A stretch of 64,000 nt of DNA from Candidatus Latescibacterota bacterium (GTDB taxonomy: Bacteria > Latescibacterota > UBA2968 > GCA-2709665): contig OZ220733.1 in assembly GCA_965116875.1 (NCBI GenBank), positions 2,464,001 through 2,528,000 of the forward strand. The letters are read 5' to 3'. Positions 42,595-48,672 of this stretch are shown one piece after another (position 1 is the stretch's first letter; every line of letters begins with the position of its first letter). The notes under the pieces are model-generated. The model was not told the DNA's origin. It did no database searches and saw only the letters and a program-made list of their open reading frames with translations. Both the position numbers and the translations under genes were made by a program.

Positions 42595-43893
42595 TTACTC
42601 TGACGGTACCTCTACAATATAAATATCAAAAGTCGTCTCGGGGTTGGAGAGGAAGGCGACTTTCCCGCCATCAGGCGACCAGGCCGGAAAATACTCCGCA
42701 TTCTCGCGATTCGTCAAGCGCTTGACATTCGTACCGTCGGCGTTCATGACGTAAAGTGGGCCATCTCCCACGGCTGAGTAAACGACTCTGGTTCCGTCCG
42801 CCGACCAAGCGGCATCGACCCACAAATCATCCCAGATATCCTGATTAGTCAGGCGAGAAACCTCGCTGCCGTCGGCATACATCACATACATATCGCCATA
42901 GTTTGTACGGGCATTGTCGCGCCTTGACCAGAAGGTGATTCTGGTTCCGTCAGGCGACCACGCAGGCAGAACACTACCTTCGGTATCCGCGGTGAGTTGC
43001 GTAACCGTTGCCGACACAACATCCACTACGGAAATTACAGCGAACTCGTTTTGATTGGAATCGACTCCTATGGACGTATAGGCGATTTTCTTACTGTCGG
43101 GTGACCAGACCGGAATCAGATCCTGGAAAGTATCGATCGTCAGCCGTGTGAGATCTGAGCCTTCCGGATCCGTCACATAGATTTCGAAGTTCCCGTCCTG
43201 GTTAGAAGAAAAGGCGATCCTGGTGCCGTCAGGTGACCAGGACGGGTATAAATCTTCTGCGTCATTATCTGTAAGACGAGTGAGACCTTCACCATTTGCG
43301 CCTGCCTTATAGATCTCGGCATTCCCATCCTGAGCAGAGGAAAAAGCGATCTGATCACCGTCCGGTGACCAGGCGATGGTCGTGTATGATTCGGTATCGA
43401 CTGCAATCGAAGTGGCCAATCTCAAAGAATCACCACCATCCGCATTCATCACCCACAATTCCGGGTCTTCAAAACCGGAAAGATAAGCAATCTTCCGGCC
43501 GTCCGGAGGTGACCACGTGGGATGTAACTCGATGGTCTCGTTATTCGTCAATCGGGTGAGTTCGGCAACACAGGGTTGACCGAACAACCTCGCGAAGGCC
43601 AGAAAGTCGGCCAGATCAATTGAGCCATTCCTGTCCAGATCCATCGCAGCGTTATAGCCCGCCTCTCCCTTCTGACTGCCAAATGCACCGGCCAGCGCAA
43701 GAAAGTCCGCGAAGTCAATCTGACTGTTGTTGTCGAAGTCACCTGGGCAACCGGAAGCCTGGGTTGCGATAGCCAGGATTGCGAAGAAGACAACTGATCT
43801 GAAAAACAAAGAGGTCTCCCCAATAGCAAGCCGGATACATGCCAATATCGCCTGACCTGCAAATAAAAAAGGTAGTTTCCTTACACAAGTCAT
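42595..43893 (-). CDS. TolB-like/PD40 beta-propeller protein with N-terminal EF-hand/dockerin-like domain
   Basis: GDFDNNSQIDFADFL...MDLDRNGSIDLADFLAF duplicated Ca-loop, then repeated RLT...PxWSPDGxxIAF units. Start uncertain. Confidence 0.85.
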   Translation of the reverse strand: MTCVRKLPFLFAGQAILACIRLAIGETSLFFRSVVFFAILAIATQASGCPGDFDNNSQIDFADFLALAGAFGSQKGEAGYNAAMDLDRNGSIDLADFLAFARLFGQPCVAELTRLTNNETIELHPTWSPPDGRKIAYLSGFEDPELWVMNADGGDSLRLATSIAVDTESYTTIAWSPDGDQIAFSSAQDGNAEIYKAGANGEGLTRLTDNDAEDLYPSWSPDGTRIAFSSNQDGNFEIYVTDPEGSDLTRLTIDTFQDLIPVWSPDSKKIAYTSIGVDSNQNEFAVISVVDVVSATVTQLTADTEGSVLPAWSPDGTRITFWSRRDNARTNYGDMYVMYADGSEVSRLTNQDIWDDLWVDAAWSADGTRVVYSAVGDGPLYVMNADGTNVKRLTNRENAEYFPAWSPDGGKVAFLSNPETTFDIYIVEVPSE

Positions 43894-44054: not shown

Positions 44055-44227
44055 ATGCCGAAGGTTAAAAAGCACAGACACGGATCGCCGTGTTGGGTTG
44101 ATCTGGCGACAGTTGATTTGGCCGGGGCGAGGGCGTTCTACGCCGGGTTATTCGGTTGGGAGTACGTGGATGAGGAGATGGGGGAGATGGACATCGGGGT
44201 TTATTCGATGGCGATGCTGGGCGGGTC
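44055..44227 (+). pseudogene. Truncated 5' copy of a VOC/glyoxalase (CFP32-like) gene
   Basis: 173 nt matching 45363-45535 with about 10 mismatches (manual count). HGSPCWVDLAT...FYAGLFGWEY, then similarity stops and a stop follows at 44252. Confidence 0.75.
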
Positions 44228-44294
44228 GACAAGCCGCCTCCCGAGTCCCTGAGCACAACAGCCGGCGGTCGCGCCGGCCGGAAAGGAAGTTGAT

Positions 44295-45236
44295 TTGACA
44301 AACCCTCCAGCCATCTGGGAGATACCCGAGCCGCTGTCCACGGACAGCGTGAAAATGGACGACGACGCCGTCATCGTCCTGAGACGCCACGGGAATCCGG
44401 CGGGTCCCCGGCTTGTCCTCAGTCACGGGAATGGCCTCGCCATCGACCTCTACTTCCCGTTCTGGTCGTTGCTGGCCGCTGGCTTCGACCTGGTGGTTCA
44501 TGACCTCAGGAACCACGGCTGGAACGAAGTCGGAGCCCTGGAGAACCACCGTTTCGATGCGTTTTCCCGCGACCACGACAGCATCTTCGAAGCGATCGAG
44601 AGGCTCTACGGCGAGAAACCCACGGTGGGCGTCTTCCACTCCATTTCTGCCCTGGCGGCCATGCACCTGCCTTCGAGAGGCAGTCAGTACTCCGCGATGG
44701 TACTGTTCGCGCCGCCTCTGTGCAACAAGGGCTCGGGATACAGGGAGTTCGAGCTGCGGGCGATCCGAACGGGTGACATGCTCAGTTGGAGGGCGCCATG
44801 GTTCAGGGCCCGGGAAGAACTCGCCGAACTTCATACCAACCTCCATTACTTCCAGCACGCTGTGCCGGGCGTCCTGGATCTCATTGCCAGGACGACCCTC
44901 AGGGAGTCCGGGACCGGACAGGGTTTCGAGCTCCGATGCCCTCGCGAGTACGAAGCGCAAATCTGGTATGAAGCCTCGCAACCGGCGGTGTCTGTGGACT
45001 TCGGCTCCCTGCGATGTCCCACCAGGATCGTCGGTTCAGATCCCGCCCTGGATCCGAATCGTCCGAAGTTCGACTACAGCGCCGCCACAGGCGTCGACCA
45101 CGAGATCGTGCCCGGAACCACACACTTTCTGCAGCTCGAGAAACCGGAGGAGTGCGCGGCGGTGATGCTGGACTTCCTGAGCCGGCAGGGCTTTGTCGAG
45201 AGTCCGCGATTGACCGCGGGACACGCGCCGACGTGA
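44295..45236 (+). CDS. Alpha/beta fold hydrolase
   Basis: LSHGNG, HDLRNHG, nucleophile region GVFHSISA, GTTHFLQLEKPE. Confidence 0.85.
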   Translation: MTNPPAIWEIPEPLSTDSVKMDDDAVIVLRRHGNPAGPRLVLSHGNGLAIDLYFPFWSLLAAGFDLVVHDLRNHGWNEVGALENHRFDAFSRDHDSIFEAIERLYGEKPTVGVFHSISALAAMHLPSRGSQYSAMVLFAPPLCNKGSGYREFELRAIRTGDMLSWRAPWFRAREELAELHTNLHYFQHAVPGVLDLIARTTLRESGTGQGFELRCPREYEAQIWYEASQPAVSVDFGSLRCPTRIVGSDPALDPNRPKFDYSAATGVDHEIVPGTTHFLQLEKPEECAAVMLDFLSRQGFVESPRLTAGHAPT

Positions 45237-45362
45237 CGCGAAACGTCCACTGCCGAATGATCGGTGGACCCGCAGGAGGCCGTGTTCGGTGTACGTGGTT
45301 GGCCGATGGCGATTGATGATGAAAACCAGGTCGACGAGGTCTGCAAGGAATCAGGAAACGCG

Positions 45363-45822
45363 ATGCCGGAGGTTGAAATGTACAGACACGGAACGCCGTG
45401 CTGGGTTGATCTGGCGACAGTTGATTTGGCCGGAGCGAGGGCGTTCTACGCCGGGCTATTCGGTTGGGAGTACGTGGACGAGGAGATGGGGGAGATGGAC
45501 ATCGGGGTTTATTCGATGGCGATGCCGGGCGGGTCCGCGGCGGCGGCGATTTGTGAGTCGGGTCCAGGGCAGATCCGCTCAGACGGGGCCGCGAAGTGGA
45601 ATCTCTACGTCTCGGTGGATGATGTCGACGCCGTCCTCGGACGGGTGGCGGCGAATGGCGGGGCTGTGCTGGCAGGTTCGAGAGACGTGGATCGCGCGGG
45701 TCGGGTGGCGGTGATCGCGGACCCGACGGGTTGTGTGACGACGCTGTGGGAGCCCGGCGAGTTCGTGGGATGCGGAGTGATGTCGGAGGTGGGCGCGTTT
45801 TCCTGGTGTGAGCATCTGAGCA
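45363..45822 (+). pseudogene. VOC/glyoxalase (CFP32-like, two-domain) gene truncated at the start of its second domain
   Basis: The first VOC domain is complete (GTPCWVDL...WNLYVSVDDVD...IADPTG). The second begins GAFSWCEHLST, then the frame runs into antisense sequence of the convergent gene up to 46004. Confidence 0.7.
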
Positions 45823-45834
45823 CGTACCGGAATC

Positions 45835-46572
45835 TCACGCGTTCCCGTCCGTCAGAATCGACACCACCTGCGGGACGGCCTCTTCCACGCATTCATCCAC
45901 TTTATCGCCTTCCATGGGTGCGGTGTGCGCGCGCAGTTCGATATTCCTGTAACCTGCGACGCCGTCAAGGGTACTCGACCAGGCGCCGGCGCCCGAAGGC
46001 CTGAATCTGGCCTCCAACTCCTTTCGTGGATACTCCCATCGCAGGTCCCTGCCGCGGTAGTGGACCCGGTCCCCGTCCTTCACGTCGTGCATCCGCATCC
46101 TGCGGTGTACACCGAAGTGAATCAGCCTGCGATGCGCGTTGTCCGGCTGCGGTCCGGCCTCCTCCCACGCCTCAATCAGGTAGTTTCCCGTCGCATGCGA
46201 CAGCCTGAAACCGTCACCATCTCGTTCGATCATTGGCACCCTGCCCGCGGCCGTGATGTAGGCGGTGGGGACGCCTCTCAACTCGAACTCCAGCATATCG
46301 TGCAAACTGCACGAACTGGCGCCGCATCAGTCCACCACCCCCATGACAAGCCCGTCGCACTCCGGGACGATCTCCTCCACGAGCTTCTTGGTGCAGACGC
46401 GGTAGGGCGATGACTTTTTCCAGGGTCCCACCACAGTCGCGTCGTACTCCGCCGCGAGCCGCTCACCGACGCCATTGAGAACGGCTCCCGCGGTTCGCTT
46501 TCCCGGATCCAGAAGTCCGATCCTGGCGCCGTTCAGGCGGGTCAGTCGGGATGCGGGTTCGATTCTTGACAC
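45835..46572 (-). CDS. UGSC-family selenoprotein (in-frame UGA at 46327-46329) with an internal Obg C-terminal (OCT)-like insertion, 245 aa
   Basis: GTG start after AAAGGAG. Track ORFs 46327-46572 and 45835-46305 are in one frame and join as ...CDGLVMGVVD-U-CGASSCSLHDMLEFELRGVPTAYIT. The N-terminus LNGARIGLLDPGK and C-terminus EEAVPQVVSILT fit the UGSC family pattern. A hairpin follows the UGA. Confidence 0.82.
46298..46314 (-). promoter_or_regulatory. Bacterial SECIS-like hairpin
   Basis: The mRNA reads UGA-(12 nt)-UCGUGCA-GUU-UGCACGA: a perfect 7-bp stem with G as the first loop base, 20 nt after the UGA. Confidence 0.75.
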
Positions 46573-46808
46573 AGGTTTGCTCCTTTCTGATCTTTACCCT
46601 CGGGTTAACGTCCGCAGTGTCAACGTATTGGGAATGTCGCCGGATTCGGTGCGTCCGAGCGCTCCTGCCCTTGACTCCGGTAATATAGCCAATGATCGAT
46701 CAGGTGTCTGCTACAAGTTTGCGTGATCATTCCCGGCGGATGTGGTCCCCCGCATCGCTCGTCGCCTTTGCGCGACCGTAGAATCCGAGCAAATTCGAGG
46801 AGGTCTTT

Positions 46809-47546
46809 ATGTTGACTGGCAAGCAGGTCCGACAGTTTCGGGAAGACGGCTATCTCGTTTTCGAAGCCCTGATACAGGGCGAGCGACTGGCCTATTACAA
46901 GCGGGTGTTCGATGAACTGGTCGCCAAGGGGAGCGAGTTGACCGAGGAGACGCCGCACTGGTCGCTCGAGTTGGACGAACACGGTAATCCACGGGCGGGT
47001 CTATTGCACAAGGTTCAGGGGGTTTGCGTGGTGGATGCCCGTGTGCTGGAACTGGCACGTGAGTCGGCGATTCTGGACCGCGTGGCCGTATTGACCGGTG
47101 AGAATATCGACGTGTTTGGCACCAAGTTCTTTCCGAAGCTGCCCAACGGCGGCACGTCGACAAGCTGGCATCAGGACAATTACTATTTTGGCACCGATAC
47201 GGACCGGATAATCAGTTGTGGAATCTATCTGGAAGATTCAAACGTGGAGAACGGGTGTCTGCGGGTGGTTCCCGGCAGCCACCGGACGGGAAGGATTGTC
47301 GAACACAGCAGGAATCCGGGCAGACATGGCAGCTGGACACAGGTCGATGAATCGCGGGCCGTGGATCTGGTCATTCCGGCTGGTACGGTCGTTCTGTTTT
47401 CCGCCAATCTCCTGCACGGCGCTTATGATAACCACAGCAATCGCACGCGCTACAGCACGGCCTGGCATTATCTGCCGGAGGAACTCAATCCGGACAGGTT
47501 TCCAAAGGGCGTATACGAAGATCGACACGTGGCGCGTACACATTGA
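46809..47546 (+). CDS. Phytanoyl-CoA dioxygenase (PhyH) family Fe(II)/2OG enzyme
   Basis: FREDGYL, WHQD, NGCLRVVPGSH, LLHGAYDNHSNRTR. Confidence 0.92.
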   Translation: MLTGKQVRQFREDGYLVFEALIQGERLAYYKRVFDELVAKGSELTEETPHWSLELDEHGNPRAGLLHKVQGVCVVDARVLELARESAILDRVAVLTGENIDVFGTKFFPKLPNGGTSTSWHQDNYYFGTDTDRIISCGIYLEDSNVENGCLRVVPGSHRTGRIVEHSRNPGRHGSWTQVDESRAVDLVIPAGTVVLFSANLLHGAYDNHSNRTRYSTAWHYLPEELNPDRFPKGVYEDRHVARTH

Positions 47547-47588: not shown

Positions 47589-48392
47589 TCAGAGCATTTC
47601 CGCAATTTCGTCGAGATACTCTTTAAGGGACAATCCGTGGCTTCTTGCCAAAATCGCCAGCGTGTCGATTCTTGTCCGTTCCCCCTTTTCAATCCTTCGC
47701 ACATGGCGTTCAGAAAGCCCTCGTATATCGGCCTGTATAAGCCCGCACTTCTTGCGCAATTCGGCAACGGCCTCACCGAATCGGAGGTCGTACATCAGTC
47801 TTTCCCGATCCTTTTTCTCACGCCATGTTTCGTCTTTCAGGTAGCGAACAGCATCCAGGTCAATGTGTACATCGACCTCAGGCCAGTGTATATAACTGCC
47901 TTCACTGGAGATGGTAAATGAAGAACGCTGTTGGGATGGAATCCGCTCCAGGGCGGGCATTTCGGCAAAACCCGCTCTGAATAAGGTATGATCACACGCC
48001 ATGACAAAGAGTTCCTCACCTACGACCTGTGCATCGGCAATGAGTTGATCAGGGCATCCAAGGCTCCAAGCCGTTAGCACACGCTTTGGAACATCCTTCG
48101 TCGAATGCACAATAATATGTCGGCTGCTCTTGAGTTTTGCCTCGTAAAGCATCTGCGGCAAAAACTGAGCGTTGCCGTCTTCGCGAACGAATAGGGTTCG
48201 AAGATGGTTCCGCTGATTGGCAGCACGGACAAAATCACTTACCGTAGGAAGATCGGCAACGGAAGTTAATACGAAAATATACCGAGCGTTCACCTCGCTT
48301 TCATCCGGTCTAAAAACGGTGAAAGTGGGCGGAATGATGTCATAGCTAAATTGATCTTGAGCCCAGACAATCATTTCAGCAGTCCTTGCCAT
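47589..48392 (-). CDS. DUF2442-like protein with C-terminal XRE-type HTH (putative antitoxin)
   Basis: FTISSEGSYIHWPEVDVHIDL resembles DUF2442. FGEAVAELRKKCGLIQADIRGLSERHVRRIEKGE is an HTH. Confidence 0.75.
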   Translation of the reverse strand: MARTAEMIVWAQDQFSYDIIPPTFTVFRPDESEVNARYIFVLTSVADLPTVSDFVRAANQRNHLRTLFVREDGNAQFLPQMLYEAKLKSSRHIIVHSTKDVPKRVLTAWSLGCPDQLIADAQVVGEELFVMACDHTLFRAGFAEMPALERIPSQQRSSFTISSEGSYIHWPEVDVHIDLDAVRYLKDETWREKKDRERLMYDLRFGEAVAELRKKCGLIQADIRGLSERHVRRIEKGERTRIDTLAILARSHGLSLKEYLDEIAEML

Positions 48393-48402
48393 TTTTGGCT
48401 CC

Positions 48403-48672
48403 TTATATCACTTTGGTTTCCCACTCGGCATAAAGGGCGTCTCTATGCTGAAGCACCAGACTTAACAGTTCTCTCAGCTCTTTGCTTGAAGGGCCTGATC
48501 CCGACGGGGGAAACTTCACATTAAAAGCCAGTTTCTTGCGTTTACACGCACGAAAAAAGACGCGTATCTCCCATTTGTCCGGTTTGCGAGCGTGAAAATG
48601 AGGAGGTTCGTGATCCGAGGAATTGAACCATAAATCCAGGCCTGCCAATTGAAAGCATTCCAACCTTCCCAA
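48403..48672 (-). CDS. DUF4160-domain protein (putative toxin-antitoxin partner)
   Basis: WFNSSDHEPPHFHA motif, 89 aa, TTG start after AAGGAG, 10 nt upstream of the DUF2442-like gene. Confidence 0.8.
   Translation of the reverse strand: MGRLECFQLAGLDLWFNSSDHEPPHFHARKPDKWEIRVFFRACKRKKLAFNVKFPPSGSGPSSKELRELLSLVLQHRDALYAEWETKVI

Follow-up and report, generated by a model that had tools for sequence, protein, structure and literature searches.

Can the C-terminal domain of an Obg GTPase be nested within a selenoprotein, and what could it do there? This question is raised by a gene of a Candidatus Latescibacterota bacterium, located at positions 45835..46572 on the minus strand of a stretch of 64,000 nucleotides (contig OZ220733.1 of assembly GCA_965116875.1, positions 2,464,001 to 2,528,000), which is referred to below as the window. 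An earlier note on this DNA, made by eye from the letters and a list of open frames, had read the gene as a selenoprotein of the UGSC family interrupted by a segment resembling the OCT (DUF1967) domain. The latter is normally known from the C-terminus of ribosome-associated Obg/CgtA GTPases. According to our analysis, the gene very probably encodes a selenocysteine (Sec)-containing polypeptide with a UGSC core, in which the segment following strand beta4 is replaced by an OCT homologue of about 70 residues and a linker; a docking or lid role is suggested for this insert.

UGSC selenoproteins were first reported from marine metagenomes and, in the UGSC passages of the Global Ocean Sampling (GOS) selenoproteome paper, appear among the most abundant selenoprotein families of that data set (PMC2398784). 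The corresponding part of a 2026 review still lists the family as uncharacterised (PMC13188914).

Selenoprotein gene and its in-frame UGA codon

The gene starts with GTG at 46572, comprises 245 codons, and ends with a TGA at 45837-45835. An AGGAG sequence precedes the start codon at 46584-46580, with a spacing of 7 nt on the minus strand, and ATG replaces GTG at the same position in two related loci (L015 and L016). Translation of 46572..45835 with TGA read as U revealed one in-frame TGA, at codon 82. The 70 residues that had attracted attention, VPMIERDG...DLRWEY, indeed follow ...GVPTAYITAAGR and represent residues 112-181 (46239..46030, minus strand). Of 19 related loci from other genome assemblies, labelled as Latescibacterota or Gemmatimonadota metagenome-assembled genomes, 18 share the frame of 245 codons, the position of its TGA codon, and the insert. 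The insert is therefore not an assembly artefact.

The UGA codon (46327..46329, minus strand) specifies residue 82 within the motif VVD-U-CGASSC-SLHD. Its reading as Sec is indicated by homologues with Cys at the aligned position and by the presence of tRNA-Sec and SelB in the genome. The match to the Pfam UGSC model, PF24696, extends across the UGA. In an alignment of 45 sequences of the insert-bearing subfamily (A4), all 18 sequences covering this column possess either a true Cys (11 sequences) or a recoded TGA (seven sequences). The true-Cys forms are ten full-length proteins of 212-254 aa and one partial sequence. In metagenomes, where the earlier note had proposed to look for the same architecture, a scan with a narrow alignment (A6) yielded a sole locus, the distant L043, which has the whole architecture and TGA at the same codon. 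The regions G000:C1:184347-184440 and 184491-184631 of the genome (L024/L032), outside the window, harbour the gene for tRNA-Sec (73.4 bits; cut-off 47) and sequence of a SelB-like frame. Some 50 nt separate the tRNA-Sec gene from the end of this 653-aa frame, which has the same orientation and in which the SelB wing-3 domain was recognized with 74.6 bits.

A hairpin resembling a selenocysteine insertion sequence (SECIS), CCAGU / UCGUGCA-GUU-UGCACGA / GCUGG, occupies positions 46290..46319 (minus strand). It begins 8 nt past the UGA, with the loop G placed 20 nt past this codon. Neither the 7-bp upper stem nor the loop varies among the 19 sequences, the synonymous diversity has its minimum at codons 86-95 (0.047 vs 0.217 for the whole gene), and L043 retains the same stem with the loop GUC. 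Several results weigh against this assignment. Namely, an Rfam scan of both strands of positions 45000-47500 at E<=10 returned four chance-level matches and no SECIS family, compensatory changes were detected in 0 of 20 pairs of the hairpin, and the z-score of its fold against shuffled sequences was only -0.95. The stem also overlaps the conserved peptide SSCSLHD, which is kept in the Cys forms as well, so that the conservation of the hairpin is partly protein-driven.

Public gene callers annotate the locus as two genes. In a search of 5.8 billion proteins, all 30 matches were post-UGA open frames of 138-196 aa; gene callers split the gene at the UGA. Taken literally, these annotations would make UGA82 a true stop that separates an 81-aa UGSC remnant from a free-standing 156-aa OCT-like protein starting from TTG at 46305. 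In a cluster look-up of ten relatives, one source even assigns the name 'Obg family GTPase CgtA-like protein' to the tail of a relative, such tails being otherwise called 'hypothetical protein'. This arrangement is hardly credible, since the ten full-length Cys forms join both halves, the UGSC model continues past the insert, both the frame and its TGA recur in L043 and in 18 of the 19 loci, the hairpin is conserved, and tRNA-Sec and SelB are both present. According to the structure model described below, the 156-aa frame would start midway through core helix alpha3. On these sequence comparisons, the gene is to be read as encoding a single polypeptide with UGA82 read through as Sec; the Obg-like name of the split tails is an annotation error, which can be corrected.

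The UGSC core and the origin of its insert

The N-terminal part of the UGSC core, residues 5-108 (46249..46560, minus strand), has the order beta1-alpha1-beta2-alpha2-beta3-[Sec]-alpha3-beta4. It matches positions 16-119 of the 172-position model PF24696 in two stretches, with a score of 90.2 bits (E=2.3e-25; cut-off 25 bits). The C-terminal part, residues 199-241 (45850..45978, minus strand), consists of the return strand(s) and a long C-terminal helix (residues 223-241) and corresponds to model positions 129-171. That UGSC sequence resumes past the insert had been noticed by eye; this C-terminal piece, scanned alone, matched the model over residues ~199-241 with E=0.033, and these model positions are also matched by P0042 and P0053, two relatives. 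About 90 residues (109-198) thus occupy the place of some nine positions of PF24696, between positions 119 and 129. They include the OCT/DUF1967-homologous domain, residues 112-182 (46027..46239, minus strand), which was recognized by profile, hhalign, and language-model matches, and a 16-residue linker, residues 183-198 (RKELEARFRPSGAGAW; 45979..46026, minus strand). The OCT-like part comprises 64-86 residues in 44 of the 45 sequences of A4, and the length of the linker differs between clades, being 15-19 residues in some and 4-6 in others.

The assignment of the insert to the OCT family is based on several kinds of comparison. When the members of A4 were scanned singly, PF09269, the Pfam model of this domain, was matched at E<=0.01 by 32 of 45 sequences (best 8.7e-8) and UGSC by 31. 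Among ten members considered in detail, nine matched PF09269 with 14.7-27.7 bits, two of them above the gathering score of 27 bits, and one had no match. A 90-residue insert profile made from 19 close sequences was compared by HMMER with 1.84 billion representative proteins and gave 21 matches. Among them were a 423-aa Obg, matched over residues 352-418 (E=6.3e-4), and a C-terminal fragment of Obg (E=4.1e-4), both matches spanning the profile from position 5 or 7 to position 72. A profile search with the post-UGA fragments retrieved 80 proteins, many distant ones with precomputed PF09269 labels and three with PF09269 and PF24696 together. The comparison of the A4 profile with all sequences of the PDB gave two matches, the best being Thermus Obg (1udx_A, residues 349-411, E=7.6e-4) and the second ribosomal protein L6 (E=0.79). 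The hhalign comparison of A4 with the Obg sequence P0049 aligned residues 113-182 of the window protein with Obg residues 350-420 over 71 columns (probability 96.1%, E=3e-9). Finally, when the window's own insert (77 aa) was compared by its ESM Atlas features, all 30 named neighbours carried PF09269 (score 0.92; 174-180 shared features). No competing Pfam family was found for the insert in scans of the window segment and of A4 members. Since the Pfam matches of relatives, the Obg tails, the 1UDX match, hhalign, and the language-model neighbours agree, we regard residues 112/113-182 as a divergent homologue of the C-terminal OCT/DUF1967 domain of Obg, as the eye-match had suggested.

The insert of the window protein does not itself display this relationship clearly. 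Its own segment matched PF09269 at a subsignificant level (13.2 bits, E=0.097) over model positions 38-64 alone, and the whole protein did not match this model even at E<=10. Most matches of the relatives considered in detail are below the gathering score and confined mainly to model positions 36-70, that is, to the second half of the model. The Obg matches of the insert profile and of the search of A4 against PDB sequences are borderline (E ~5e-4 to 8e-4), and the structure searches given below did not list Obg. Such results could be explained by a lineage-specific insert of unrelated origin, the likeness of which to OCT is limited to a short convergent motif, G-x-x-R-x-L-R-x-x-G-x-K-x-G-D-x-V. 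This explanation seems very unlikely to us. The hhalign alignment runs from the first strand pair to the last, the relative P0085 matches PF09269 over model positions 9-69, the Obg matches span profile positions 5-72 and 7-72, and neither the language-model neighbours nor the Pfam scans offered a rival to DUF1967. The profile scan proposed for residues 112-181 therefore had a divided outcome, failing for the window's own segment and succeeding for most of the relatives; the eye-match was a correct lead but not proof.

Two further results of these searches were set aside. A 524-aa repeat protein among the matches of the insert profile looks spurious (five 22-residue stretches). The insert profile of the close clade, compared with PDB sequences, gave chance-level matches to KAS II only (E ~0.7) and no Obg; 1UDX was reached by the diverse profile alone.

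It had also been asked whether the host obg still has its own OCT. The only GTP1_OBG match in the host genome (G000:C1:4515810-4516274; L044) lies in a 331-aa frame, and PF09269 had no match in this genome. The host Obg is thus a short form without the C-terminal domain, and the nested OCT is the only OCT-like sequence found there. Because the host Obg lacks OCT, the nested domain is neither derived from it nor a duplicate of it. When 61 genomes of the phylum were scanned in six frames for PF09269, no match exceeded the cut-off and three weak ones appeared, two of which (L021 and L022) are the nested insert itself. The absence of PF09269 above the cut-off from these 61 genomes suggests that Obg functions without OCT in this phylum.

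The window protein shares with the UGSC family (PF24696; NF041046) the place of Sec after beta3 and the same N- and C-terminal core segments. It differs in length (245 aa vs ~150-170), in the ~90 residues inserted after beta4, and in the redox motif. The U-G-S-C (UxxC) motif is absent; the window protein reads U-C-G-A-S-S-C, lacking the +3 Cys and keeping the +6 Cys. It scored below the cut-off of the NCBIfam equivalog NF041046 (64.6 vs 125 bits; only residues 15-108 vs model 2-95 of 147). At the place of the insert, a canonical UGSC selenoprotein of the same phylum, but of a sister family, has only EPFREAADA, and its redox motif reads U-G-S-C-T-T-C. Of 18 sequences in A4, 12 have the +6 Cys and one has the +3 Cys. 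The subfamily has a redox motif of its own, U/C-x5-C instead of U-G-S-C.

The architecture recurs in the 18 related loci, in the distant Sec form L043, and in the ten full-length and one partial Cys forms, and is therefore not a peculiarity of a single assembly. It is best understood as an old domain insertion that defines a subfamily with Sec and Cys forms and several divergent clades. Nearly invariant residues in A4 are Arg111, Pro113, Gly154, Gly167, Val170, Pro182, and Asp203, together with His156 (42/45), Arg157 (44/45), Arg160 (43/45), Trp179 (45/45), and Gly204 (45/45). The core L-R...G-x-x-x-G-D-x-V is common to the subfamily and Obg; His156 and Arg157 are specific for the subfamily and are retained in neither of the two aligned Obg sequences.

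Many members of the subfamily (P0038, P0039, P0042, P0044, P0046, P0060, and others) possess a Cys within the OCT-like domain, in the motif R-L-A-G-C-K/R-x-G-D; the clade of the window has Val or Asp-Val at this place. In those clades, this Cys may be a second redox-active residue.

Predicted structure and possible role of the insert

An AlphaFold2 (AF2) model built with alignment A4 had a pLDDT of 93.7 and a pTM of 0.90, the blocks of the insert being in the pLDDT range of 88-96. It superseded a first model, built with 19 close sequences (pLDDT 54, insert <50), which was useless for the insert. The modelled core includes beta1 (residues 17-22), beta2 (46-52), beta3 (74-80), Sec82, alpha3 (83-98), and beta4 (103-107) and is predicted to be an alpha/beta, flavodoxin-like three-layer fold. 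The OCT-like domain was modelled with strands 114-118 and 121-125, helices 129-133, 144-152, and 155-161, and strands 169-172 and 175-178. These four modelled strands and three helices agree with the general description of the OCT family. A short helix (184-189) follows, after which the chain rejoins the core and ends in helix 223-241.

A Foldseek comparison of the model, suggested in the earlier note as a way to reach Thermus Obg, did not do so: the search of the PDB with the whole model gave nothing at E<=1e-3, the top rows being generic alpha/beta folds such as a Piwi MID domain and lumazine synthase. Foldseek and VIA-align searches with the whole model matched the core to flavodoxin-like and receiver-like alpha/beta folds in a generic manner only. 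Both lists were filled by the core and contained no Obg, which weighs against the assignment of the insert.

In the model, Sec82 would act as a selenol/thiol redox centre at the end of strand beta3 and the start of helix alpha3, and its redox partner in the clade of the window is probably Cys88 or Cys83. Folds of this three-layer alpha/beta type carry the active site at the C-terminal ends of their strands. The OCT-like module is predicted to depart from the sheet at the C-terminal end of beta4, which neighbours beta3, on the active-site face. The departure of the insert from beta4, the strand next to the one (beta3) that precedes Sec82, would place it beside the redox centre, and the high pTM (0.90) suggests that the insert is packed rigidly. 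It could thus serve as a built-in lid or docking surface selecting the substrate or partner, and the near-invariance of His156, Arg157, and Arg160 suggests an anionic ligand. We put forward this functional reading, in which the insert governs the specificity for the substrate or partner, as a tentative one. It has to be weighed against the fact that topology and conservation are the only basis for the role of the insert, for its nearness to Sec82, and for what His156, Arg157, and Arg160 would do, and that the neighbouring genes for PhyH, VOC, and alpha/beta-hydrolase proteins give no functional hint.

A different role, along the lines of the OCT-mediated interaction with ribosome, RNA, nucleotide, or partner protein that had been proposed in the earlier note, would have OCT act here as it is presumed to act in Obg. 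By tethering the Sec centre to ribosomes, to a GTPase, or to a guanine nucleotide, for example (p)ppGpp, it would connect the redox chemistry of selenium with translation or with the stringent response. The homology to the OCT of Obg spans the full domain, and this homology is apparently the sole argument for such a tether in the window protein. In the crystal of Thermus Obg, the C-terminal domain touches an adjacent G domain at its nucleotide-binding site, and the passage concerned describes the C-terminal domain of Obg as involved in nucleotide binding and stress response (PMC9545696). However, the passages on OCT in PMC3775756 and PMC9545696 give no agreed function of this domain, the host and the 61 sampled genomes lack PF09269 above the cut-off so that Obg works there without OCT, and no ribosomal or translation genes are located nearby. 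In addition, His156 and Arg157 are not shared with the two aligned Obg sequences, and the insert is modelled as rigidly packed on the core rather than as a free tether. We therefore consider this role improbable. Equally doubtful is the broader idea that OCT is a portable recognition module, which brings the Sec redox centre to the ligand or partner of the Obg OCT (a ribosomal element, the nucleotide pocket of a GTPase, or an alarmone). If it were true, these proteins would serve the apparatus of translation or of the stringent response as redox regulators or as repair enzymes, and the nested Sec/OCT pair would offer the first tractable assay for OCT binding.

Compared with the OCT of Obg/CgtA (PF09269; solved in Thermus thermophilus Obg, PDB 1UDX), the insert has ~70 homologous residues and the same core motif, G-x-x-x-x-L-R-x-x-G-x-x-x-G-D-x-V-x-hydrophobic. 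Unlike that domain, it is not C-terminal but nested between UGSC model positions 119 and 129, in a protein without a GTP1_OBG or G domain. It carries the subfamily-specific His156 and Arg157, is too divergent in the window's copy to be recognized by Pfam, and occurs in a phylum with Obg lacking OCT. A conserved subfamily of Sec enzymes with OCT at the active-site side would imply that this domain can work outside Obg. The compact size of the protein (27 kDa) would make the subfamily suitable for probing the target of the redox centre and the ligand of OCT together.

A fusion of UGSC with an additional domain has been reported before, as UGSC/Unknown_1 in Figure S1A of the GOS selenoproteome paper (PMC2398784). 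Both cases combine a UGSC selenoprotein with an extra conserved domain, and the conserved Cys mentioned for added domains in that text (PMC2398784) recalls the Cys of R-L-A-G-C-K in many members of the present subfamily. Unlike the insert studied here, the added domains are described there as located upstream or downstream, and Unknown_1 also as a separate protein in a few aquatic organisms (PMC2398784). UGSC/Unknown_1 may or may not be the same as the present architecture, given that this comparison relates to the text of the paper and not to its figure. The UGSC passages of the selenoprotein papers considered make no mention of OCT or DUF1967, and the literature searches brought up no paper on a nested UGSC-OCT architecture. 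The suggestion that the architecture is undescribed thus holds for this literature but not for databases, which already have both Pfam labels on three relatives.

Distribution, gene neighbourhood, and other features of the window

UGSC matches were detected in 18 of the 61 sampled genomes of the phylum. The canonical contiguous form was seen in 12 of 14 genomes of one genus; the insert-bearing form occurred in the genus of the window and in two other genera. One genome encodes both forms; all these UGSC genes have one TGA. The genome of the window possesses a single copy of the insert-bearing gene. Three full insert-bearing copies were found in G051, from the same genus, and two in the assembly of L011/L012, each with one TGA. 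The remaining one of the 19 related loci, L018, is a truncated extra copy located on the same chromosome record as L001, about 5.7 kb apart. It corresponds to the C-terminal half (fragment residues 64-156, 91% identity), has no N-terminal core upstream, and is probably a pseudogene fragment.

The selenoprotein gene is flanked by a divergent gene for a PhyH dioxygenase and a convergent gene for a VOC/glyoxalase protein, with an alpha/beta-hydrolase gene nearby. The PhyH neighbour is conserved with 87-92% identity in 13 of the 19 loci, and the PhyH, VOC, and alpha/beta-hydrolase genes are common to close kin only. Because the genomes concerned are kin, this neighbourhood was rejected as functional evidence.

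Several minor observations were made in other parts of the window. A 65-aa open frame at 44055-44252 (plus strand), upstream of the alpha/beta-hydrolase gene, is a near-repeat of the N-terminal part of the VOC/glyoxalase protein (from 45378 onward, plus strand). The sequence common to this frame and the VOC/glyoxalase gene (45264-45830) is ...PCWVDLATVDLAGARAFYAGLFGWEYVDEEMGEMDIGVYSMAM. A duplicated 5' segment of the VOC gene therefore lies on both sides of the hydrolase gene (44295-45236); extra partial VOC matches also occur in related loci. Between the PhyH and FAA-hydrolase genes, positions 47589-48672 (minus strand) encode a 267-aa protein with DUF2442 and HTH_3 domains, followed by an 89-aa frame upstream. 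The former protein had tblastn matches in only two of the 19 related loci (L009 and L019). This pair looks like a small inserted cassette, possibly of a toxin-antitoxin-like type. The gene at 42595-43893 (minus strand) encodes a 432-aa protein, in which a dockerin/EF-hand-like N-terminal segment is followed by PD40 (TolB-like) beta-propeller repeats.

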